A DNA stretch of 54,920 nt from an uncultured Clostridia bacterium (GTDB lineage Bacteria; Bacillota; Clostridia; Christensenellales; Borkfalkiaceae), in the NCBI GenBank assembly GCA_947589585.1, contig CANQCA010000001.1:1-54920 (forward strand). Direction: 5' to 3'. The position numbers were made by a program, and so were the translations under genes. Positions within the stretch are counted from its first letter, which is position 1. Each line of letters opens with the position of its first letter. Positions 6,952 through 42,927 of the stretch are shown piece after piece. Below the pieces are notes generated by a model that ran no database searches, was not told the DNA's origin, and saw nothing but the letters and a program-made list of their open reading frames with translations.

Positions 6952-6953
<2 letters not shown>

Positions 6954-6973
6954 TACTATGCCACGCATAATAC
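6952..6973 (+). repeat. copy a of the recurrent motif AGTACTAT-N6-CATA (AGTACTATGCCACGCATAATAC)
   Basis: Overlaps the typA stop codon TAG (6951-6953). Arms GTACTATG / CATAATAC form an imperfect palindrome. Confidence 0.8.
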
Positions 6974-7102: not shown

Positions 7103-7329
7103 GCCAAACAAACTTTATATCCAAGAAAAGGAGGGCACGGTTTTTTCATGTAAATCTAAAATATAAGGGGAGGAGTATTTCCTGCTCATACATTGCTCAT
7201 ATTAGAATTTGGCAGAACTGCAAATTCCAATATATGGACGTTACTACCGTGCCGTATATAAAGTTTGTTTGGCGACAACCGGAGTTTGCGTTTTGTATGC
7301 GCTGACTTCGGTTGGCGCATTTTTATTTT
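7103..7329 (+). promoter_or_regulatory. structured leader or candidate invertible segment upstream of the LRR lipoprotein gene
   Basis: 18-bp perfect inverted repeat at 7103-7120 / 7256-7273 enclosing 135 bp. A second complementary pair is GGCACGG 7134-7140 / CCGTGCC 7247-7253. A terminator hairpin at 7297-7320 (UUCG loop) plus T-run 7321-7329 ends 5 nt before the SD AAGGAGA. Confidence 0.6.
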
Positions 7330-7346
7330 ATCAAGGAGAAATTGTT

Positions 7347-8531
7347 ATGAAAAAGTGGCTCACAGCGATCTTGATGATCGCATTTACTGTTTGTCTTTGC
7401 CTCGGACTTTCGGCATGCGAAAATTTCGGATCGTCCAACGACGGTCCCTCGGGCGGTTCGAGCAATACGCCGAAAGAGGACAACGACGGCACATTCATTT
7501 ATTCGGGCGCTTCGATCAAAGCAGCGAATACGTCCATTTCGGGCGATATCGTCATTCCCGCCTCGCATAACGGGGCGCCCATTGATACCATTCCCGAAGC
7601 GGCATTCAAGGGTTGCAACGGAATCACTTCGATCACCGTTCCCGAGAGCGTGACTTCGATCGGCGAAGGTGCATTTAACGGGTGTTCGCTCCTTCGGAGC
7701 ATTACATTGCCTTTTGTAGGAAGGCAGAAGGGAAATACGGGGAAATCTGCTTGTTTCGGATATATTTTTGGAACAAATTCTTATCAAGGCGGTACAAAAG
7801 TAAACCAGCATTACGATTCGGGCGTTGTAGCATCTTTTTATATTCCTTCAACCTTGAGAACTGTTACAATTACTAATGAAACAACAATTGGCAAATCTGC
7901 ATTTGAAAATTGCTCAATGCTGACAAAAATCGACCTGAATGATGGAGTTTTACAAGTCGGATCAGGTAGCTTTTCGGGATGCTCTAAGATTGAGGAAATC
8001 AATTTACCGAGTATTACAATTATTCCTTCGTCTCTCTTCAGCGGTTGCGTTTCTTTAAGTAATTTTACTATCAATGATTCCGTGGATACGATTGAATCAA
8101 GTGCGTTCTATGGGTGTACGGCTCTCGCTTCTATCAATTCCAAGGTAGTAGGAGAATTTATTATTCCAGACAGCGTGACCTCGATCGGCGAAGGCGCGTT
8201 TAACGGTTGCGCTCTTCTTCGGAGCATCACGCTACCCTTTGTTGGGAGCGGAAAGGGGAATACAGGGAGAGCCGCATGTTTTGGACATATTTTTGGGACA
8301 AGTTCATATCAAGGCGGTACACAAGTGAACCAGCATTACGGTTCCGGCGTTGTAGCATCTTTTTGTATTCCTTCAACTTTGAGAACTGTTACAATTACGA
8401 ATGAAACCATGATAGGACAAGGAGCATTCCAAAACTGTTCCATGATACAGACTCTTAAAATCAATTCCGCGGCGCAGGGCAATATCGGAACGTATGCCTT
8501 CAATGAAACGGTAACGCCGACGTGGTTCTAA
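7347..8531 (+). CDS. BspA-type leucine-rich-repeat surface lipoprotein
   Basis: MKKWLTAILMIAFTVCLCLGLSAC is a signal peptide with a lipobox. Repeated ...IPxSVTSIGEGAFxGCxxL... units fit LRR_5/BspA type. SD AAGGAGA lies at 7334-7340. Track ORF 7209 was trimmed. Confidence 0.85.
   Translation: MKKWLTAILMIAFTVCLCLGLSACENFGSSNDGPSGGSSNTPKEDNDGTFIYSGASIKAANTSISGDIVIPASHNGAPIDTIPEAAFKGCNGITSITVPESVTSIGEGAFNGCSLLRSITLPFVGRQKGNTGKSACFGYIFGTNSYQGGTKVNQHYDSGVVASFYIPSTLRTVTITNETTIGKSAFENCSMLTKIDLNDGVLQVGSGSFSGCSKIEEINLPSITIIPSSLFSGCVSLSNFTINDSVDTIESSAFYGCTALASINSKVVGEFIIPDSVTSIGEGAFNGCALLRSITLPFVGSGKGNTGRAACFGHIFGTSSYQGGTQVNQHYGSGVVASFCIPSTLRTVTITNETMIGQGAFQNCSMIQTLKINSAAQGNIGTYAFNETVTPTWF
7647..7922 (+). 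repeat. intragenic duplication, copy 1 (about 275 bp)
   Basis: Encodes VTSIGEGAFNGCSLLRSITLPFVGRQKGNTGKSACFGYIFGTNSYQGGTKVNQHYDSGVVASFYIPSTLRTVTITNETTIG..., nearly identical to copy 2. Confidence 0.85.
8172..8447 (+). repeat. intragenic duplication, copy 2 (about 275 bp)
   Basis: Encodes VTSIGEGAFNGCALLRSITLPFVGSGKGNTGRAACFGHIFGTSSYQGGTQVNQHYGSGVVASFCIPSTLRTVTITNETMIG..., offset 525 bp from copy 1. Confidence 0.85.
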
Positions 8532-13695: not shown

Positions 13696-13717
13696 AGTAC
13701 TATGTCACGCATAATTG
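13696..13717 (+). repeat. copy b of the recurrent motif (AGTACTATGTCACGCATAATTG)
   Basis: Lies 25 nt after the YgjP-like stop. It shares the 16-mer TTTGCAAAGTACTATG with copy d. Confidence 0.8.
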
Positions 13718-17641: not shown

Positions 17642-18016
17642 GCCTTATCGCATACTAATTCTTCGGCTTTCGATTTGTACTCTTTTTATAGGCTTTCTTT
17701 ATATGACGGACAACAGGTATATCACCCGCACCAAAAGACCGGCCTTCGCGGTCTCTCGCCATCTGAATTTTTTCATATTGCGGTGGGACTGACTATACAA
17801 ATCATTGTCCCTATCTTCTTTTATAAATCAATCCAATCTGTAGATTTTGGGCCGATCGGTCATGGACGAAAGATTATCCTGAGAACTTTCCGAAAATCCT
17901 TTCAAAAGTTGGCAAAAATCATGGGAAATATGTTATAATATATCAAGGGCTGCGCTCATAAAAAACCTTTCTAAAAATACCGAGAGAGCAAAATAAAACT
18001 TTCCATAAATACCATA

Positions 18017-18050
18017 CAAAAAAACACCGACGGGCGTCGGTGTTTTTTTA
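18017..18050. terminator. bidirectional intrinsic terminator
   Basis: A-run, then ACACCGAC-GGGC-GTCGGTGT, then T-run. It lies 8 nt beyond the stop of the minus-strand PadR-like gene. Confidence 0.85.
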
Positions 18051-18057
18051 TACGCAT

Positions 18058-20439
18058 TTATTGTTTCTTCTTGGGGCGGGTGAGGATGTAGTAGCAAATG
18101 CCGAAGATGACGATCCCGAAGAAGAAGATGATGGGGACGACGATGAAGGTCGCAAGGTCGGAAGTGCTCGTAAAGTCGATCTTTGCCGAGAGGGCGACGA
18201 TGAACGTGATCACGATGGTAAGGGCATAGCCGACGACTGCATTGATAAGCGCGGGGCCGTTCCTTCGTATCGAACGTGCGCCGTAGTGGTTCGCATAGGC
18301 GAGACCGGTGACGAGAAGAACGACGACGCCGATCGCCCAGATGAAATAGGGGAAGTAGAGGGGAATGCCGTATTTCTCTCTCACGGCCATCACGATGGCC
18401 CCTTCGACGATGCAAACAAAGAGGAGCACGATGGCGGAGAGGAAGAGCATCTTTCCCTTATGGACGGTGTTGACGATATCTTCCTCGACCTTGGCGGGCA
18501 TGCCGCCGCCCGTCGTCGTGACGCGGATCCCGTCGCGTGAAGCACGCATCTCGAGGTCGTGGAAATCGATCCCGTCGAGCGGGCGTGCATATGCCGCGGC
18601 GTCGCCCCCATGTTCGGGCCGGTTGGCTCCCGCATAGATGCGGCGGACGACGGAACGGTATTCCTGCTCGGCCGCGGAGGCATCGAGCTCACCGTCTTCT
18701 TCCTTCCGTGCGGAAGAATTTACGAGGTCGAGATAGTTTTTGTGAAGGATCTGCTGTTCGCGCTGGCGGAAGATAACTTCTTGCTCCTGTAAGATCCTGC
18801 GTTCCTGATCGGCGAGCTCCTGCACATGCGCCCTGCGCTCGGCGCTGAGCTGTTCGTCCCTTTGGCGGAGAAGATCGGCGAAACGGCTGCGCTCCTGCGC
18901 ATAGAAGGCTTCCCGCTCGTTGAATTGCTGTTCGCGTTCTTCGATGATGCGTTTTCTCGAGGCTTCTTCCTCGTCGAGGATGCGCTTTCTCTCAAGCTCC
19001 TCAGCGGCGAGCGTGGACTTTTTGGCGGCCTCTTCAGCCTCAAGTGCGGCGCGTCTCACAGATTCAGCCTCTTCGAAGGCGCGCTTTCTCTCGGCCTCCT
19101 CGGCATCGAGCTTTGCCTTGCGGGCCTCGGCTTCCTCATCGAGAATACGCCTGCGCTCGCTCTCTTCCGCCTCCAAAGCGGCGCGGCGGGCGGCTTCTTC
19201 CTCGTCCATGGCGCGGCGCCTCTCCTCGAGACGGGCGGCCTCTTCGGCGAGGGCGGCTTCCTTTTGCTCCTGCTCTGCATTGGCGATGGTGATCTGCTCC
19301 CTGCGCATCGCCTCGAGACGTTCACGCTCTGCGGCAAGGGCCTGCTCGCGGGTCGCGATCTCCTGTTCACGCCATGCGAGTTCGCTGTCGGCGGCGTCCT
19401 CGTGCGCTTTTACCTCCTCTTCAAAGAGCTGCTTCTCTTCCTCATGGGCTTTTACTTCCTCTTCGAGGCGAAGCTTTTCCTCTTCGTGCAGACGGACCTC
19501 CTCCGCAAAGAGAAGGCGGTCTTCCTCGTGGGCTTTGACCTCTTCCTCGAGGCGTATCTTTTCTTCTTCGTGCGCCTTGAGTTCTTCCTCGAAGAGCTGT
19601 CTTTCCTCCTCATGCGCCTTGAGTTCTTCCTCGAAGAGCTGTTTTTCCTCTTCGTGCGCTTTTACTTCTTCCTCGAAGAGCTGCTTTTCTTCCTCATGCG
19701 CCTTGACCTCTTCTTCGAGGCGAAGTTTTTCTTCCGCATGGGCTTTTACTTCCTCTTCGAAGAGTTGCTTTTCTTCCTCATGCGCCTTGACCTCTTCTTC
19801 GAGACGAAGTTTTTCTTCCTCATGCGCCTTGACCTCTTCTTCGAGACGAAGTTTTTCTTCCTCGAGAGATTTGCGCTCCTCCTCGAGCTCGGCATTTTTA
19901 CGGGCGAACTCTTCGCTCAGGCGTGCCCGTTCCAAAGAATCATCGAAAACGGGTTCATAGTCGAGCTCCTCGCCTTCGCCCTCGCGGGAGGGGACGCGGG
20001 AGGTCGAGCTGCGCAGAACACGCATGTCCACCTGCGTGGGGGCGGGATTGTTGAAGTCGAAATCCTTATCCGAAATGAGCGAGTCGATGACCGTTCTCGA
20101 ATATTCCCACTCCGATTGGTTTTGCTCAGAGACGAGCTTTCCTTCATCGGTGAGGGAGAAATATTTCCTTCTGCCGCCCGCGACGGAGCCACCCCAATAG
20201 GAAGTCACATAGCCGTTCTTTTCGAGGCGCTTGAGCGCGCTGTAGAGGGAGGGCTCTTTGAGGGAATACTGCCCGTGGCTCTTGCGCTCGATCTCGGACA
20301 TGATCTCGTAGCCGTATTTATCTCCGTCGTAGAGTGCACGCAAGATTATGGTATTGATATGCCCGCGGATGAGATCGGAACTTATCGACTTATCGTCCTT
20401 TTGTTCTTTGACTTCATCGGGAGCGAATTCATCATCCAT
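18058..20439 (-). CDS. PadR-family wHTH fused to a long charged repeat or coiled-coil region and a C-terminal 4-TM domain
   Basis: N-terminus DLIRGHINTIILRALYDGDKYGYEIMSEIERKSHGQYSLKEPSLYSALKRLEKNGYV...GGRRKYFSLTDEG is PadR-like. About 420 aa are E/K/R/A-rich repeats. The last ~150 aa carry four hydrophobic helices. GGAGGA lies upstream. Confidence 0.8.
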   Translation of the reverse strand: MDDEFAPDEVKEQKDDKSISSDLIRGHINTIILRALYDGDKYGYEIMSEIERKSHGQYSLKEPSLYSALKRLEKNGYVTSYWGGSVAGGRRKYFSLTDEGKLVSEQNQSEWEYSRTVIDSLISDKDFDFNNPAPTQVDMRVLRSSTSRVPSREGEGEELDYEPVFDDSLERARLSEEFARKNAELEEERKSLEEEKLRLEEEVKAHEEEKLRLEEEVKAHEEEKQLFEEEVKAHAEEKLRLEEEVKAHEEEKQLFEEEVKAHEEEKQLFEEELKAHEEERQLFEEELKAHEEEKIRLEEEVKAHEEDRLLFAEEVRLHEEEKLRLEEEVKAHEEEKQLFEEEVKAHEDAADSELAWREQEIATREQALAAERERLEAMRREQITIANAEQEQKEAALAEEAARLEERRRAMDEEEAARRAALEAEESERRRILDEEAEARKAKLDAEEAERKRAFEEAESVRRAALEAEEAAKKSTLAAEELERKRILDEEEASRKRIIEEREQQFNEREAFYAQERSRFADLLRQRDEQLSAERRAHVQELADQERRILQEQEVIFRQREQQILHKNYLDLVNSSARKEEDGELDASAAEQEYRSVVRRIYAGANRPEHGGDAAAYARPLDGIDFHDLEMRASRDGIRVTTTGGGMPAKVEEDIVNTVHKGKMLFLSAIVLLFVCIVEGAIVMAVREKYGIPLYFPYFIWAIGVVVLLVTGLAYANHYGARSIRRNGPALINAVVGYALTIVITFIVALSAKIDFTSTSDLATFIVVPIIFFFGIVIFGICYYILTRPKKKQ
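19398..19862 (-). repeat. about 11 tandem 42-bp coding repeats (14-aa unit VKAHEEEK[LQ][RL][LF]EEE)
   Basis: Period-42 tandem repeat seen directly. The last two units on the + strand (CATGCGCCTTGACCTCTTCTTCGAGACGAAGTTTTTCTTCCT) are identical. Confidence 0.9.
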
Positions 20440-20464
20440 AGACGTTTCCTCCTTTGTTTCCTAT

Positions 20465-20493
20465 ATTTTACCACTTTGCATAGATTTTGTCAA
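20465..20493 (-). promoter_or_regulatory. sigma-A type promoter for the PadR-like gene, TTGACA-17-(TGg)TAAAAT on the minus strand
   Basis: Reverse complement reads TTGACAaaatctatgcaaagtggTAAAAT, about 25 nt upstream of the ATG at 20439. Confidence 0.7.
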
Positions 20494-20502
20494 TAGGAAA
20501 AT

Positions 20503-20524
20503 AGTACTATGTCAGACATAATTT
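20503..20524 (+). repeat. copy c of the recurrent motif (AGTACTATGTCAGACATAATTT)
   Basis: Sits in the divergent promoter region, 9 nt beyond the -35 of the PadR-like gene promoter. The core ATGTC-A-GACAT is a perfect palindrome. Confidence 0.8.
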
Positions 20525-20552: not shown

Positions 20553-21932
20553 TTGCACGAAAAACACATAGGAAAGCATGTGAATATCTTGCAGGGGGCA
20601 TTTTTTATCGTCGGCGGAGCGATCGGTGCGGGATTTGTCTCGGGGGCCGAGCTCGTGCGCTTTTTTCCCTCTGCACAGTACTTTGCACCCGCGCTTTTTT
20701 CGGGGATCTGCTTCGCCTTTTTCTGCGCGCTCTTCCTGCATTTCGGCAAGGTCTATGGGGGATTCTATCCCACCCTTGTAAAATTTTTCGGAAGGGGAGC
20801 GGGCGCGGCGAGGATCGCCATCTCGATTCTCTTTCTCGTCCCGTCCGCGGCGATGCTTGCGGGGCTGGATGCGCTTTTGCCCGCTATCTCTCCGCTTCCG
20901 TCGATCGGCGGGGCATTGCTCTGCGCAATGGTCATCCGCCGGGGAACGGTCGGGGTGGGAAAACTGAACAGCATCCTCGTTCCCGCTTTGATCTTCTGCA
21001 TCTTTCTTTTCGGCGGGCGAACGCTCTCCTTCGGCGACATATCGTTCGGGGGAATGGGAGGTGGCCTTCTCTATGCCTCGCTCAACTGCTTTTTGATGGC
21101 GCCCGTGCTCATGGATGCGGGAAGGGATATGCGCAATATCGCTGCGCCCTGTTTGCTTGCGGCCGCCATCGTCTTCTTCTCGTCGATGTGCATTCTCGGA
21201 AGTATCCGTGCTTGCGGCGAGAGGGCATTATCCGCCGAGATGCCCTTCCTCTATGCCATGGGGGGAAGGCCTTTTGTAAAGTTCCCGCTCGCACTCGCCA
21301 TCCTCACCTCGCTCGCATCTTCTCTCTATCCGCTCCTTCGTCTCCTCGAAAAGTTTCCGGGCAAGATAAAAACGGCCGCAAAGGGCGGAATGCTCCTTGC
21401 GGCCTTCGCACTCTCCCGCATCGGTCTTACGGGGATCGTGCAATATATCTACCCCGTGGAGGGGATGCTCGGCATATGCTTTTCAGTTTTCGGTATTTTT
21501 CAGGAGTATTTTCTCGAGAAGCACCACAAGAAAGTACATCCCCGCCGCGAGAACGCACAAGATCAGGGTGGCGCTCATCACGAGGTCGAGGCGGAACACC
21601 TGCCCGCCGTAGACGATAAGGTACCCGAGCCCGGCCCGCGAGACGATGTATTCTCCCATGATGGACCCGATCCACGCCATGCCGACGTTTACTTTCAGCA
21701 TGGAGATGAATGCGGGAAGGGAAGAGGGCACGACGAGCCTCGTGAGGATCTGAAACTTGCTCGCACCCATCGACCTGAGGAGGAGCATCTTATTCTTATC
21801 TGTTTCGATGAAGGCGGAGAGCATGTGCATGATCGCCACGATCACGCCGACGAGTACGGTCATGAACAGGATCGCCGTGCTGCCCGTCCCGAACCAGATG
21901 ATGATGAGCGGCCCCAAAGCGATCTTGGGTAA
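20553..21932 (+). CDS. YkvI-like polytopic membrane protein with a doubtful C-terminal tail
   Basis: The first ~325 aa are a multi-TM protein (FFIVGGAIGAGFVSGAELV...). The last ~130 aa are charged and low-complexity and lie antisense to the ABC permease gene. The start may be the GTG at 20580. Confidence 0.55.
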   Translation: MHEKHIGKHVNILQGAFFIVGGAIGAGFVSGAELVRFFPSAQYFAPALFSGICFAFFCALFLHFGKVYGGFYPTLVKFFGRGAGAARIAISILFLVPSAAMLAGLDALLPAISPLPSIGGALLCAMVIRRGTVGVGKLNSILVPALIFCIFLFGGRTLSFGDISFGGMGGGLLYASLNCFLMAPVLMDAGRDMRNIAAPCLLAAAIVFFSSMCILGSIRACGERALSAEMPFLYAMGGRPFVKFPLALAILTSLASSLYPLLRLLEKFPGKIKTAAKGGMLLAAFALSRIGLTGIVQYIYPVEGMLGICFSVFGIFQEYFLEKHHKKVHPRRENAQDQGGAHHEVEAEHLPAVDDKVPEPGPRDDVFSHDGPDPRHADVYFQHGDECGKGRGHDEPREDLKLARTHRPEEEHLILICFDEGGEHVHDRHDHADEYGHEQDRRAARPEPDDDERPQSDLG

Positions 21933-22301
21933 GGCGTTGATGACGACGATATAGGGTTCGAGCATCTTTCTGACGGTTTCGCTCCACCAGAGGGCGAGGG
22001 CGACGCCGTAGCCCACCGCAACGGCGATGGCAAAGCCCGCAAGCGTCTCCCAGAGCGTCGTCCCGATATGGTAGAAGAGGGTGCCGTCGTCGTAGAGCGA
22101 GGCGATGGTATTTGCGATGCGTGAGGGGGAACTCGTGAGGAAGGGGTCCACCCAGCCGAGATCGGCGGAGAGCTCCCAGAGTCCCAACAGAAGGACGAGA
22201 ATCCCGAGGCGCAACGACCAGACGAGGGCGACGTTTTGCCTTCTTTTTTTGAGAAATTGCCTGTGTTCTGCGGAAAATCCCATTGATTTCTGCTTTTTCA
22301 T
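21483..22301 (-). CDS. ABC transporter permease (NitT/TauT-type)
   Basis: Six-TM BPD-type permease (ALPKIALGPLIIIWFG..., LLRSMGASKFQILTRLVVPSSLP is an EAA-like loop). Its ATG overlaps the ATPase stop (ATGA), with GGAGG upstream. Confidence 0.85.
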   Translation of the reverse strand: MKKQKSMGFSAEHRQFLKKRRQNVALVWSLRLGILVLLLGLWELSADLGWVDPFLTSSPSRIANTIASLYDDGTLFYHIGTTLWETLAGFAIAVAVGYGVALALWWSETVRKMLEPYIVVINALPKIALGPLIIIWFGTGSTAILFMTVLVGVIVAIMHMLSAFIETDKNKMLLLRSMGASKFQILTRLVVPSSLPAFISMLKVNVGMAWIGSIMGEYIVSRAGLGYLIVYGGQVFRLDLVMSATLILCVLAAGMYFLVVLLEKILLKNTEN

Positions 22302-23041
22302 GCGTTCAACTCCTTCCAAAGTATTTCGAACCAGCCCGAAAATCCGTTCATCTCGCGTCTTCTCATGGGATTTTTCTCCTCTCCGAAATCGAGAGTATGC
22401 TCATGCGTGACGCGGGCGGGACGGGGAGATAAGACGAGGATGCGGTCGGCGAGTGAAATGGCCTCGGAGATATCGTGGGTGATGAGAAGGGCGGTCTTTC
22501 CCTCGCTGCGGATGATCCCGGAAACGTCCTCGGTCACATTCAGGCGGGTCTGATAGTCGAGCGCGGAGAAGGGCTCGTCGAGCAGGAGGACGTCGGGGTC
22601 GGTCGCAAGCGTACGGATGAGCGCCGCCCGCTGCCGCATCCCGCCCGAAAGCGCGGAGGGATAGCTCTGAAGAAAGTCGCCGAGCCCGTATTTTCTTGCA
22701 AGCGCTCTGGCGCGTTCGCAATTTTCTTCCGTCTTGATATGTTTGATCTCGAGGGGAAGGAAGATGTTCTTCTCCACCGTCCTCCAGCCGAAGAGCTCAT
22801 CGCGCTGCAGCATATAGCCGCAACTGCCCTGCCGTTCCACCAAGCCCTCCGAGGGCTTCAGCAGCCCTGCCGCGAGGGAGAGGAGGGTGGTTTTTCCGCA
22901 TCCGGAAGGCCCGATGACGGCGACGAATTCTCCTTCCGAAACGCTGAACGAGAGCGCATCCGCAGCTTTGGTCTCGCCGAGCTTTGTGTGATAGATAAGG
23001 GATACACCGGAAAAGCGCAACATTTCCTTTTTCATATGCAT
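22298..23041 (-). CDS. ABC transporter ATP-binding protein
   Basis: GPSGCGKTTLL (Walker A), LSGGMRQRAAL (signature), LLLDEPFSALD (Walker B). Confidence 0.92.
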   Translation of the reverse strand: MHMKKEMLRFSGVSLIYHTKLGETKAADALSFSVSEGEFVAVIGPSGCGKTTLLSLAAGLLKPSEGLVERQGSCGYMLQRDELFGWRTVEKNIFLPLEIKHIKTEENCERARALARKYGLGDFLQSYPSALSGGMRQRAALIRTLATDPDVLLLDEPFSALDYQTRLNVTEDVSGIIRSEGKTALLITHDISEAISLADRILVLSPRPARVTHEHTLDFGEEKNPMRRREMNGFSGWFEILWKELNA

Positions 23042-29611: not shown

Positions 29612-29633
29612 AGTACTATGCGTGACATAGATA
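29612..29633 (+). repeat. copy d of the recurrent motif (AGTACTATGCGTGACATAGATA)
   Basis: Lies 39 nt after the adhE stop, between convergent adhE and rplI. Its central 5 nt are the reverse complement of those in copy b. Confidence 0.8.
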
Positions 29634-29650
29634 TTTGATCGAACTATAAG

Positions 29651-29679
29651 AAAAACGCCTCCAAAGAGGCGTTTTTTTA
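29651..29679. terminator. bidirectional intrinsic terminator between adhE and rplI
   Basis: AAAAACGCCTC-CAAA-GAGGCGTTTTTTT. Confidence 0.85.
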
Positions 29680-42348: not shown

Positions 42349-42870
42349 ATGAACATTGCCGAAGTCAAGAAAACAGATATCGCAAACGGAGAGGGAGTAC
42401 GCGTTTCCCTCTTCGTTTCAGGCTGTAGACGGCATTGCAAGAACTGCTTCAACGCCGTTGCATGGGATTTTTCCTATGGAAGGCATTTCGACAAAGGATT
42501 CGAAGAGGAGATCTTAAATGCGCTCTCCCCCGACTATATCGCGGGGCTTTCGCTTCTCGGCGGGGATCCCTTTGAGCCCGAGAACCGGGAGGGGCTGCTT
42601 CCGTTTTTGAGAAAGGTCCGCGCCCGTTTTCCCGATAAGACGATCTGGTGCTACACGGGCTATACCTTCGAAGACGGGGGCATCCGCGAGCCGCAGGTGG
42701 GCGGCGAGCGGGCACGCGAGATGATTTCCCTTCTCGACGTCCTCGTCGACGGACCGTTTATCGAAGAACTCAAGGATATCCGCCTCAAATTCCGCGGCTC
42801 ATCCAACCAGCGCGTCATCGATGTGAAACGCAGTTTAGAGCAAAATAGCGTAGTACTATATCTGACATAG
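42349..42870 (+). CDS. nrdG: anaerobic ribonucleotide reductase activating protein (radical SAM)
   Basis: DIANGEGVRVSLFVSGCRRHCKNCFN carries the CxxxCxxC cluster motif. Confidence 0.9.
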   Translation: MNIAEVKKTDIANGEGVRVSLFVSGCRRHCKNCFNAVAWDFSYGRHFDKGFEEEILNALSPDYIAGLSLLGGDPFEPENREGLLPFLRKVRARFPDKTIWCYTGYTFEDGGIREPQVGGERAREMISLLDVLVDGPFIEELKDIRLKFRGSSNQRVIDVKRSLEQNSVVLYLT

Positions 42871-42873
42871 TAC
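42852..42873 (+). repeat. copy e of the recurrent motif (AGTACTATATCTGACATAGTAC)
   Basis: Overlaps the nrdG stop codon TAG (42868-42870). Arms GTACTAT / ATAGTAC are perfectly complementary. Confidence 0.8.
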
Positions 42874-42927
42874 CTCAAATAAAGGCAAGTATCATCAAAA
42901 TATTCAAAAAATTTAAGGAGAATCTAC

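Follow-up and report, generated by a model that had tools for sequence, protein, structure and literature searches.

The gene on the reverse strand at positions 18058–20439 of the window (the entire 54,920-nt stretch analysed, from an uncultured Clostridia bacterium) encodes a 793-residue, membrane-anchored PadR-like protein. Judged from its sequence, this protein represents a new arrangement in which a known PadR subfamily-2 (PadR-s2) head is combined with a rod and a membrane anchor in one polypeptide. We regard an autoregulated, membrane-tethered one-component PadR regulator with many targets as the best reading of this architecture, and we hold it with about even confidence. Our search for PadR proteins fused to transmembrane (TM) helices found no description in the literature covered, which was limited, so that its silence is not proof.

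Gene and domain anatomy

The reading frame, taken from the ORF list with its ATG start, ends in a stop codon at 18058–18060 and is matched by intact orthologous frames in 53 species genomes. The gene has a strong promoter and a terminator of its own. A consensus scan placed a sigma-A-type promoter at 20465–20493 on the same strand (11 of 12 matches), composed of a −35 hexamer TTGACA (20493–20488), a 17-nt spacer with a TG extension and a −10 hexamer TAAAAT (20470–20465); TTGACA and TATAAT-like hexamers occur at the equivalent place in ~50 orthologous loci. A ribosome-binding site, GGAGG (20448–20452, reverse strand), lies 8 nt 5' of the ATG and is kept in orthologues, and an intrinsic terminator with a 19-pair stem followed by a T-run (18013–18054, reverse strand) lies immediately 3' of the stop codon. 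On the forward strand, a divergent gene at 20553–21557, whose open frame extends to 21932, encodes an uncharacterised polytopic membrane protein, for which tblastn found matches in the same divergent arrangement at 52 of 57 related loci. This neighbour had no relative in Pfam, NCBIfam and PDB sequence searches.

The PadR-s2 head spans residues 19–125 (20065–20385, reverse strand) and consists of a winged helix-turn-helix followed by a C-terminal dimerisation helix, as identified by Pfam, phmmer, AlphaFold2 (AF2) and Foldseek. Pfam PF03551 matched residues 32–102 (E=2.1e-19; 69.7 bits against a curated cut-off of 27) and was found in all 50 family members tested. Using phmmer, residues 19–126 aligned with 1XMA (E=3e-27) and LmrR was also matched; the alignment to 1XMA, 9QBC and LmrR continues through residues 103–126, which form the dimerisation helix, and identity with PadR-s2 structures is 35–48% over the whole head (residues 19–126). 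The AF2 model of the head has pLDDT values of 75–92 with a helix at residues 98–122, and Foldseek returned TM-scores of 0.7–0.8 (target-normalised) over ~100 residues. A preliminary description of this DNA had assigned the N-terminus to the PadR winged helix-turn-helix, and this end-to-end alignment with PadR-s2 crystal structures, dimerisation helix included, confirms that assignment. The head thus combines the profile match with the single predicted C-terminal dimer-interface helix that mark subfamily 2, but the whole protein, at 793 residues with four TM helices, is not of the small soluble ~110-residue type. Among orthologues, the head has a mean identity of 89%.

The head is followed by a linker (residues 126–170; 19930–20064, reverse strand) with the pattern DFDFxNPAPTxVxMRVLxxxTSRVPSRE, which is predicted to be disordered (pLDDT <50) and shows 67% mean identity in 52 orthologues. 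Its residues D128, F129 and L142 are almost invariant throughout the wide family.

Residues 171–573 (18721–19929, reverse strand) form a spacer that AF2 models as helices at 171–332 and 347–573, in line with composition and charge-pair analysis. The earlier suggestion that the E/K-rich middle of the protein is helical therefore agrees with a model in which it is predicted to be helical nearly throughout; a second low-confidence stretch covers residues 574–622. Charged residues make up 53% of the spacer, the net charge is −56, and opposite-charge i/i+4 pairs number 0.22 per residue versus 0.01 for like-charge pairs. About 21% of the residues are strongly hydrophobic, and the a/d seam is half-populated, with V and L/F alternating with H and K. 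The spacer has a mean identity of 24% and 40% gaps among orthologues.

Two repeats are embedded in this spacer. The first is an array of 11 tandem 14-residue (42-bp) units with the pattern EEEK(L/Q)(R/L)(L/F)EEEVKAH (residues 193–346; 19402–19863, reverse strand). Tandem Repeats Finder reported 19397–19863 with period 42, 11.1 copies and 75% matches, which together with our unit table agrees with the initial count of about 11 units, two of them identical: units 1 and 2 do not differ in DNA, and the mean pairwise DNA identity is 75%. Comparison with sibling species, in which this segment is present as a single-copy progenitor and the array flanks align on both sides, indicates that the array is a lineage-specific amplification. 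The second repeat, previously described as a looser periodicity, was resolved by a column table as a hendecad, R-(R/K)-x-(A/I)-L-(E/D)-x-E-E, with ~8 tandem 11-residue units of R(R/K)x(A/I)L(E/D)xEExE at residues 416–503 (18931–19194, reverse strand); orthologues carry 33-, 66- and 99-nt repeats of the same type. The proposal that the spacer is prone to expansion and contraction stands in so far as the array arose by amplification in this lineage, but only two units are identical and units with identical peptides differ at synonymous sites, so that the array has the look of repeats that are old and under selection, not of a fast slippage tract. Among Logan contigs from four rabbit or other gut metagenome runs (40–700 nt, 2–7x deep), none spans the array, and no strain-level variation could be demonstrated from them.

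The length of the spacer is variable. The distance from head to TM1 is 405–737 residues among orthologues and ~265–290 residues in distant family members, where the spacer is estimated at 100–150 residues; overall, spacer length varies ~three-fold among orthologues and ~five-fold across the wider family. The idea of a "defined" distance between head and membrane does not survive this spread, which also led us to reject a molecular ruler.

The C-terminal part begins with a conserved juxtamembrane segment (residues 616–660; 18460–18594, reverse strand), ARPLDGIDFxDLExRAxxDGIRI ... VHKGK, with 52% mean identity in the alignment; its DFxDL...DG(I/F)(R/K)I motif is also present in a distant subfamily. 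The four-helix membrane domain (residues 661–793; 18061–18459, reverse strand) was delineated by hydropathy, AF2, invariant columns and the positive-inside pattern. Hydrophobic segments at about 663–686, 692–714, 729–751 and 762–786 coincide with AF2 helices at 661–690, 695–716, 730–751 and 759–787 (pLDDT 95–98), in agreement with the four C-terminal TM helices proposed at the outset. The model used was a full-length run with a 50-sequence alignment; a run on the C-terminal 230 residues with an 8-sequence alignment gave pLDDT 56 and was set aside. A predicted cytoplasmic loop, TGLAYANHYGxRSxR(R/K), and a PKK tail are conserved. Across 53 sequences, the pre-TM1 segment, loop 2 and the tail each carry on average ~3 K+R, versus ~1 in loops 1 and 3, which are 8–10 residues long. 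This charge distribution would put the head in the cytoplasm and leaves almost no external loops, corresponding to an anchor that lacks a sensory ectodomain. With a DNA-binding domain and TM segments in one polypeptide and the head predicted to be cytoplasmic, the protein has the domain arrangement of membrane-bound one-component regulators such as BcrR, ToxR and CadC. The membrane domain had no relative in Pfam, NCBIfam and PDB sequence searches, in which an NADHdh match (E=0.018) was dismissed as noise. A fold search with the full model returned only PadR heads and so says nothing on the membrane domain.

Distribution of the family and integrity of the frame

Uninterrupted orthologues of 561–939 residues were identified in 53 species-level genomes, comprising Candidatus Gallimonas and related uncultured Clostridia MAGs, with conserved synteny and a membrane domain fixed at 130–140 residues. 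The head-spacer-TM architecture set out in the preliminary description is accordingly conserved in other uncultured Clostridia. An exhaustive profile search with the C-terminal domain matched 184 representatives at E<=1e-3. In the 150 of these that were listed, the match reaches the C-terminus or stops no more than ~20 residues short of it, and ~100 also carry the head, the others having the appearance of fragments. A further ~100 more distant clusters share the design of head, rod and four TM helices. The family is abundant in uncultured gut Clostridia, and the public annotations that we saw are generic ("PadR family" or "helix-turn-helix transcriptional regulator"). It became visible only by exhaustive profile search combined with a genome scan, as word-indexed protein searches gave fragments only, seven for the C-terminus and, for the head, a best 120 matches that are all <=321 residues. 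The gene is usually truncated in metagenome assemblies. An exact look-up in public assemblies found no identical copy of the 793-residue protein.

Such breakage is what would be expected if the frame were a chimera or a collapse across low-complexity repeats, as the preliminary description had allowed. Public metagenome assemblies often break or mis-join the gene: P0001 and P0002 carry unrelated N-termini, three assemblies of one species each break the gene at a different place, and the array is unspanned by the Logan contigs mentioned above. We nevertheless consider an artefact exceedingly improbable here, because 53 independent species genomes carry the same frame unbroken and in conserved synteny, and because it is maintained over 2.4 kb and can be aligned with sibling species on both flanks of the array. 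In addition, no exact internal repeat in the gene exceeds 53 nt and the units show synonymous differences, so any collapse could affect little beyond the two identical units.

A candidate operator and its sites

A recurrent motif, TATG-N5-CATAGTACT, which in its longer form is the imperfect palindrome AATTATG-N5-CATAGTACT and whose elements include TATG and CATAGTAC, occurs five times in the window versus 0.01 expected. A PWM scan returned exactly these five sites, at 26–42 bits against a shuffle maximum of 13. The copy with 41.8 bits, the candidate operator TATGTCTGACATAGTACT (20503–20520, reverse strand), lies between the −35 of the 793-residue gene and the divergent gene, 9 nt from the −35 and centred near −53, which bears out the earlier placement of a copy just 5' of the gene's own promoter. 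The intergenic region that holds it is common to both genes. A second copy (13696–13713, reverse strand), syntenic in most related species, is located 25 nt after the stop of a ygjP-like gene and 120 nt upstream of DUF1934/Lactamase_B_3-rho-ROK genes. The copy at 6952–6969 (reverse strand) overlaps the typA/bipA stop, 240 nt upstream of the start codon of an LRR-protein gene (7209). The copy at 29612–29629 (reverse strand) sits between the adhE stop (29573) and the terminator common to the convergent adhE and rplI genes, which is not a promoter position. The last, a near-perfect 23-bp palindrome AGTACTATATCTGACATAGTACC at 42852–42874, extends over the stop of a Fer4_12 (NrdG-like) gene and precedes an M29 aminopeptidase gene by 55 nt. 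None of the five lies inside a coding body, and two overlap stop codons.

The motif is conserved beside the −35, exactly or with one mismatch, in ~50 species whose proteins are only 35–75% identical in the C-terminal part. Small soluble PadRs that share this head, and more distant long members, also have it within their promoters, and no copy precedes the genes of members with QGTFYSA(L/M)QR in place of (S/T)LYSxLKRLE as recognition helix. Based on this co-variation and conservation, the motif is most likely the operator of this PadR head, and the initial suggestion that the head may bind the AGTACTAT motif gains strong comparative backing. To our knowledge, the motif has no likeness to sigma-54, sporulation-sigma, LexA, CodY, Rex or CcpA sites. 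Operators of PadR proteins typically contain ATGT/ACAT tetranucleotides, in canonical form as the inverted repeat ATGT-N8-10-ACAT, and usually lie at the promoter of the regulator gene itself (PMC3506622, PMC5050560). The candidate half-sites contain ATGT and ACAT with a 3-nt spacer (ATGT-N3-ACAT, or TATG-N5-CATA), plus GTACT.

Instead, the motif might belong to a promoter or be bound by another factor, with the protein acting only as a local regulator or in another role. The weak arm CATAAT, often with a preceding TGn, resembles an extended −10; in many species the second copy is found 25–45 nt before a start codon with no other promoter between; and the five window copies all share one orientation. 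This explanation appears quite unlikely to us, since the motif is palindromic, since the copy that accompanies the 793-residue gene is followed by a separate canonical promoter, TTGACA-17-TAAAAT, and since motif and recognition helix vary together in long as well as short PadRs. Moreover, the window holds no other PadR gene, and one copy has no downstream gene to drive. A plain sigma-70 promoter was rejected, as the −35-like TTTACA or TTGCAA beside some copies leaves a spacer of only 14–15 nt.

Proposed role and comparison with known systems

According to the reading that we prefer, the conserved flexible linker and then a long helical rod of strongly acidic character would connect a cytoplasmic PadR-s2 head with the four-helix membrane domain. 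The head most likely binds the imperfect palindrome as a dimer. The copy between the −35 and the divergent gene implies autoregulation together with control of that always-adjacent membrane-protein gene, and the four further copies in other intergenic regions of the window suggest that the regulon comprises many sites and not just one local target. An anchoring role, and probably also one as an intramembrane or cytoplasmic-face sensor, would fall to the membrane domain. The rod, ~400 residues here and ~60 nm if fully extended, would let a membrane-fixed head reach nucleoid DNA, and its net negative charge would keep it off DNA and anionic lipid. Several features speak against such a regulator. 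Typical PadR repressors overlap the core promoter, unlike the operator at the gene's own promoter, which is upstream of the −35, and the half-site spacing departs from the canonical one. The 29612 site, between convergent genes, has no promoter to regulate, and another overlaps the typA stop. At five sites per 55 kb, a whole genome would hold well over a hundred, an unusual number for a PadR, and a plain tethered regulator has no obvious need for a 170–500-residue rod.

An alternative is a sequence-specific chromosome-membrane tether, in which the head occupies many dispersed sites while rod and anchor hold loci near the membrane. Such a protein would serve nucleoid organisation or segregation in the manner of Noc or RacA, with transcription affected only secondarily. 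Sites occur at ~1 per 11 kb, at least one of them away from promoters; every orthologue has a long rod (head to TM1 at least 405 residues), whose strong net negative charge suits a spacer; and the anchor has no ectodomain with which to sense. We consider a tether unlikely, while giving it some weight. The density comes from 55 kb of one genome, and the five sites all avoid coding bodies, which is typical of regulatory sites and, as far as we know, is not required of tether sites. The site with the best conservation adjoins the promoter of the gene itself, soluble small PadRs have the same operator in the classical autorepressor position, and the spacer shrinks to an estimated 100–150 residues in distant members. 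The specific proposal that head dimers bind well over a hundred dispersed intergenic sites, with an acidic rod of ~25–75 nm and an integral four-TM foot pinning loci under the membrane, strikes us as improbable. Such a nucleoid-to-membrane anchor would, if it existed, be of a new kind, and Christensenellales-like gut bacteria would use it to structure the chromosome or to link it with the state of the envelope. In a further alternative, which resembles the activation of membrane-bound transcription factors by regulated proteolysis, the protein is stored at the membrane and a signal frees the head by cleavage in the linker (residues 126–170) or near the membrane. A linker that is disordered yet conserved, with its almost invariant residues, and the second low-confidence stretch are compatible with release. 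This seems highly unlikely to us, because a rod of hundreds of residues is pointless if the head simply leaves, and the freed fragment would be an ordinary PadR-s2 that such bacteria could encode directly. Comparison of related loci revealed no protease gene conserved beside the 793-residue gene, and we know of no cleavage motif.

How membrane-fixed bacterial transcription factors find specific sites on nucleoid DNA is an old question, to which this family seems to respond by linking a well-understood DNA-binding head to a compact membrane foot through a long, fast-evolving helical rod. The candidate operator is sharply defined and can be counted in genomes, which makes global versus local regulon, and regulator versus tether, directly testable. 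The natural series of rod lengths, which starts at an estimated 100 residues and extends to 500 or more, likewise makes the relation between reach and rod length testable.

The rod resembles ER/K single alpha-helix (SAH) spacers and two-stranded coiled coils in its high E/K/R content, many opposite-charge i/i+4 pairs and long predicted helix. It differs from an ER/K SAH in being net −56 rather than balanced and in having a half-populated hydrophobic seam where SAHs have none; in other lineages of the family, the spacers are rich in leucine and look like ordinary coiled coils.

RacA and Noc of Bacillus subtilis are chromosome-to-pole and chromosome-to-membrane tethers with a MerR-like and a ParB-like head, respectively. 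They share with the 793-residue protein a sequence-specific DNA-binding head, a membrane- or pole-directed end and many dispersed sites, and RacA also has a coiled-coil middle. Their attachment is peripheral, through DivIVA or an amphipathic helix, in contrast to the integral four-TM domain here, and, as far as we know, their sites also occur outside intergenic DNA. Pfam and further sequence searches found no ParB or MerR-like head homology in the 793-residue protein. BcrR of Enterococcus faecalis, which senses within the membrane, likewise has four TM helices and no ectodomain. BcrR uses an XRE helix-turn-helix, and ToxR and CadC an OmpR-type fold, as DNA-binding domains, all with short linkers, as opposed to the 170–500-residue helical rod here; their membrane parts have no sequence relationship to that of the 793-residue protein.

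With PadR subfamily 2, including LmrR of Lactococcus lactis, 1XMA of C. thermocellum, CdPadR_0991 and bcPadR1/2, the head aligns over its whole length and shares the single predicted dimerisation helix; the candidate operator at the gene's own promoter contains ATGT/ACAT half-sites (PMC3506622). Known members are soluble and ~110 residues long, whereas here 670 more residues form the rod and membrane domain, the half-sites are spaced differently and candidate sites are many more. Small PadR repressors commonly control membrane-protein operons and respond to envelope-active compounds (PMC6624303), and they are often paired with a membrane-protein partner (PMC11237479). The HAAS-PadR dyads and Listeria LstR/LltR-type repressors (PMC11237479, PMC6624303) resemble our protein in coupling a PadR-s2 head to a membrane protein, in their envelope-related logic and in the adjoining membrane-protein gene. 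Pfam gave no match to HAAS families in the 793-residue protein or its neighbours, and a weak DUF1129 match (E=0.0075) in one of 50 family members; this is not a standalone PadR beside a HAAS protein. In the dyads the membrane partner is a separate HAAS protein (DUF1700, DUF1129 or DUF1048), whereas here anchor and head are one polypeptide with a long rod inserted. Given the known coupling of PadR and membrane proteins, their fusion in cis would be a plausible evolutionary step.

Domain organisation of the membrane-anchored PadR-like protein

The gene at 18058–20439 on the reverse strand encodes a membrane-anchored PadR-like protein of 793 residues and is a self-contained transcription unit. 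Its promoter (20493–20465, reverse strand; TTGACA-17-TAAAAT with a TG extension) matches the consensus at 11 of 12 positions, the ribosome-binding site GGAGG lies 8 nt ahead of the ATG on the same strand, and a reverse-strand terminator hairpin of 19 pairs is found directly 3' of the stop codon.

The preliminary description had recognised a PadR winged-HTH domain (the head) at the N-terminus and four transmembrane (TM) helices at the C-terminus, and our analysis bore out both assignments. Pfam identified PadR at residues 32–102 (E=2e-19, 69.7 bits versus a cut-off of 27), and NCBIfam PadR models covered residues 25–122 with scores under their equivalog cut-offs. In a PDB sequence search, residues 19–126 aligned without gaps to PadR subfamily-2 proteins, including 1XMA (E=3e-27), a Brachyspira PadR and LmrR; the aligned region takes in the C-terminal helix through which members of this subfamily (defined in PMC3506622) dimerise. 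The full-length protein was modelled with AlphaFold2 using a family alignment of 50 sequences. The head (pLDDT 75–92) matched PadR subfamily-2 structures in Foldseek with target-normalised TM-scores of 0.7–0.8. It is followed by a disordered linker (residues 126–170, pLDDT below 50), two very long helices (residues 171–332 and 347–573, pLDDT 60–85), a low-confidence region (residues 574–622) and membrane helices at residues 661–690, 695–716, 730–751 and 759–787 (pLDDT 95–98). Kyte-Doolittle analysis, independently of the model, gave the same four hydrophobic segments.

Across 53 sequences, lysine and arginine together average about three in each of the segment preceding TM1, loop 2 and the C-terminal tail, and about one in loops 1 and 3, which are only 8–10 residues each. 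This distribution fits a predicted N-in/C-in topology with a cytoplasmic head and virtually no external domain. Loop 2 holds TGLAYANHYGxRSxR(R/K), the motif most strongly conserved in the membrane part, and any sensing by this domain would be expected inside the membrane or on the cytoplasmic face. Sequence searches of Pfam, NCBIfam and PDB returned no relatives of the membrane domain.

The rod that separates head and membrane domain (residues 171–573) is composed of 53% charged and 21% strongly hydrophobic residues, with a net charge of −56; opposite-charge i/i+4 pairs occur at 0.22 per residue and like-charge pairs are almost absent (0.01). TRF detected a tandem repeat of period 42 at 19397–19863 (11.1 copies), corresponding to eleven 14-residue units, EEEK(L/Q)(R/L)(L/F)EEEVKAH, at residues 193–346. 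Units 1 and 2 are identical in DNA, in line with the two identical repeats noted earlier; the remaining array is imperfect. Because mean pairwise DNA identity is 75% and units with identical peptide vary at synonymous positions, the array is no run of perfect copies (longest exact internal repeat, 53 nt), and the unit seems to be maintained at the peptide level. The second, looser periodicity reported earlier was recovered as an 11-residue repeat of about eight units at residues 416–503.

Periodicity analysis of the rod sequence identified no clean 3.5-residue period. Read in heptads, the 14-mer places V and L/F at every other core position with H and K between them, and the spacers of other family lineages are ordinary, leucine-rich and coiled-coil-like. 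The data are as compatible with a weak two-stranded coiled coil as with a single alpha-helix; since the head should dimerise, we lean towards a parallel dimer. Each 14-mer unit is closed by a histidine, giving eleven histidines at exact 14-residue spacing along the predicted helix (residues 206–346, window 19402–19824) at the would-be core d position. These residues could render the rod sensitive to pH or metal.

Conservation and evolution of the family

Alignment of the C-terminal region against one genome per GTDB species identified 57 loci, every one in a metagenome-assembled genome (MAG) labelled uncultured Clostridia, Candidatus Gallimonas or uncultured Christensenellaceae. Isolate names indicate rabbit and chicken samples as well as a gut MAG catalogue, and rabbit gut metagenome runs contain the window's own DNA. 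In 53 of the 57 loci, a single unbroken ORF of 561–939 residues encodes the head (S[IV]SSDLIRGHINTIILR...), then a charged central region and the four TM helices, so that the architecture recurs in other Clostridia. Synteny is also retained, with the divergent membrane-protein gene at 52 loci, an ABC permease gene at 53, rho at 46 and the DUF1934/Lactamase_B gene at 43. Given these intact, syntenic orthologues, the protein represents a real conserved family and not a chimera, and an assembly artefact is essentially excluded for everything except the unit count of the array. The gene is frequently broken in short-read assemblies; three assemblies of one species each break it at a different point, and the representative genome (L036) has it intact. 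Two public metagenome proteins (P0001 and P0002) combine the conserved C-terminal domain with unrelated N-termini, one AAA-like and the other zinc-ribbon-like with a precomputed PF18073 match, and have the appearance of mis-joined sequences or wrong gene calls over the low-complexity spacer.

When 1.84 billion representatives were searched exhaustively by profile, 184 proteins proved to have the C-terminal domain. Among the 150 listed, the domain match finishes within about 20 residues of the C-terminus, and about 100 also carry the head; the remainder begin within the rod and are fragment-like. None of the best 120 head matches in a large protein collection exceeded 321 residues, a further sign of gene breakage in short-read assemblies. 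The source annotations examined for family members go no further than "PadR family transcriptional regulator" or "helix-turn-helix transcriptional regulator". PF27734 and PF27881 appear in precomputed annotations of some N-terminal family fragments (P0236, P0262, P0272 and P0273) and were not returned by our Pfam scan; more recent Pfam releases may therefore have models for parts of the family already. Scanning metagenomes with a distant subgroup brought in additional long members (410–961 residues) and small soluble PadRs of 106–120 residues with an identical head motif, SDLIRGHIDTIIL (L125, L128, L129, L133, L134, L137–L139 and L141). These small proteins are probably the ancestral stock of the long membrane-anchored form; at their loci, L141 excepted, the candidate operator described below lies inside their own promoter.

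Compared with the window protein, 52 orthologues have a mean identity of 0.89 in the head, 0.67 in the linker, 0.24 in the rod (40% gaps), 0.52 in the juxtamembrane segment and 0.55 in the membrane domain. The membrane part invariably spans 130–140 residues in the 53 loci, and the head-to-TM1 distance ranges from 405 to 737 residues (median 540; 636 in the window protein). The 14-mer array is absent from the other orthologues. The closest species harbour a single copy of the progenitor segment (e.g., ...EDEKQRFEEEMKAR...) with flanks as in the window, which makes the array an 11-fold amplification specific to this lineage, with a gain of about 140 residues. Other species show amplifications of their own, with periods of 33, 66, 99, 45 and 204 nt. 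As judged from these comparisons, the rod evolves through tandem duplication and its length is unfixed. The preliminary observation is confirmed and its interpretation was largely right, apart from the "defined" head-to-membrane distance, which, because rod length varies, is better described as long but free to vary.

The linker (window 19930–20064) is disordered yet conserved (DFDFxNPAPTxVxMRVLxxxTSRVPSRE), with D128, F129 and L142 nearly invariant throughout the wide family, and may be a docking or cleavage motif. Some orthologues (L054–L057 and L060) carry an acidic, Pro-rich tandem-repeat extension of 100–170 residues N-terminal to the head, with units such as DEPEEEPETPTVEFE, as well as PAPAP-type repeats ahead of the membrane domain; their loci also have a second partial motif copy (ATGTCTGACAAAATACA) farther upstream.

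A candidate operator

The 18-mer TATG-N5-CATAGTACT occurs in the window at 6952, 13696, 20503, 29612 and 42852 (five observed versus 0.01 expected). A position weight matrix built from 92 sites of related loci scores these five at 26–42 bits and all else at 12 or less, the shuffled-sequence maximum being 13. The motif is an imperfect palindrome with strong arm CATAGTACT and weak arm CATAAT; the 42852 copy is near-perfect (AGTACTATa-N5-cATAGTACc). Its half-sites share the ATGT/ACAT tetranucleotides known for PadR operators, whereas the spacing differs (PMC3506622, PMC5050560).

The 20503 copy, between the PadR-like gene and the divergent membrane-protein gene, lies 9 nt before the −35, in agreement with its earlier placement just upstream of the promoter, and is separated by 3 nt from a weak hexamer that resembles the −35 of a possible divergent promoter. 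In nearly every species the orthologous gene has the motif, exact or with one mismatch, 7–9 nt from TTGACA. Most species share a second copy in conserved synteny, just after ygjP and before tyrA-like or DUF1934-rho genes; the 13696 copy is 25 nt past the ygjP-like stop, with the canonical promoter (TTTACA-17-TATAAT) of the DUF1934/Lactamase_B-rho-ROK genes downstream. The 6952 copy overlaps the typA stop upstream of the promoter of a leucine-rich-repeat protein gene (7209–8531, forward strand; BspA-type, with its own TTGACA-type promoter), and the 42852 copy overlaps the stop of a Fer4_12 gene, 55 nt ahead of an M29 peptidase gene. The 29612 copy occupies a promoter-free position between the adhE stop and the terminator common to convergent rplI; in this stretch (29612–29670) the bidirectional terminator lies within about 25 nt after the motif. 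With the weak arm as −10 the transcript would be only about 45 nt; otherwise this copy would be a non-promoter binding site.

The divergent frame (20553–21932, forward strand) meets its first stop only at 21932 and so shares about 450 nt with the 3' end of the ABC permease gene that converges on it (21483–22319, reverse strand). The homologue in a related species has 334 residues and an overlap of only about 20 nt, which points to a sequence error, a frameshift or the loss of a stop codon in the window. Pfam, NCBIfam and PDB sequence searches gave no relatives of this protein.

In small soluble PadRs that share this head, the motif sits within their own promoters, over the −35, spacer or −10. 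Related versions occur in more distant long members, and in the L085–L100 group of these the motif occupies the spacer of TTGACA-17-TAGAAT. It is absent upstream of members with the recognition helix QGTFYSA(L/M)QR instead of (S/T)LYSxLKRLE. On these comparative grounds, the PadR head very probably uses the motif as its operator; that it is a promoter element or the site of another factor is improbable. The window contains no second PadR gene.

Proposed function and relation to known regulators

A membrane-integrated one-component PadR regulator is the best-supported reading, and we give it an even chance of being correct. The dimeric head would bind the candidate operator at its own promoter, common to the conserved divergent gene, and further intergenic motif sites; the four-helix foot would act as an anchor and possibly sense membrane state, and the acidic rod would provide reach without contacting DNA or anionic lipid. 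The main rival, a true chromosome-membrane tether, is favoured by the presence of the rod, the site at a non-promoter position and the motif density, five sites in 55 kb being far above the needs of a local PadR. The intergenic bias of the sites argues against it, all five window sites avoiding coding bodies as regulatory sites do, as does the classical autorepressor geometry in soluble relatives, and we regard a tether as unlikely. Release of the head by proteolysis, suggested by the conserved disordered linker, is improbable.

The head belongs to PadR subfamily 2, and the protein as a whole is atypical of that subfamily, whose members are typically small and soluble. In its proposed function it resembles BcrR-type membrane-bound one-component regulators, which combine an N-terminal HTH with four TM helices and have no known ectodomain. 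Literature searches found no description of PadR fused to transmembrane helices, and a Pfam search of the window protein and 50 family members detected no HAAS domain beyond a single weak DUF1129 match (E=0.0075). The protein can be viewed as a cis-fused counterpart of HAAS-PadR dyads and of PadR repressors acting on operons for membrane proteins (PMC11237479, PMC6624303). In architecture the family represents a new variant on known regulator types, and it offers a clear, testable candidate operator and a natural series of rod lengths.
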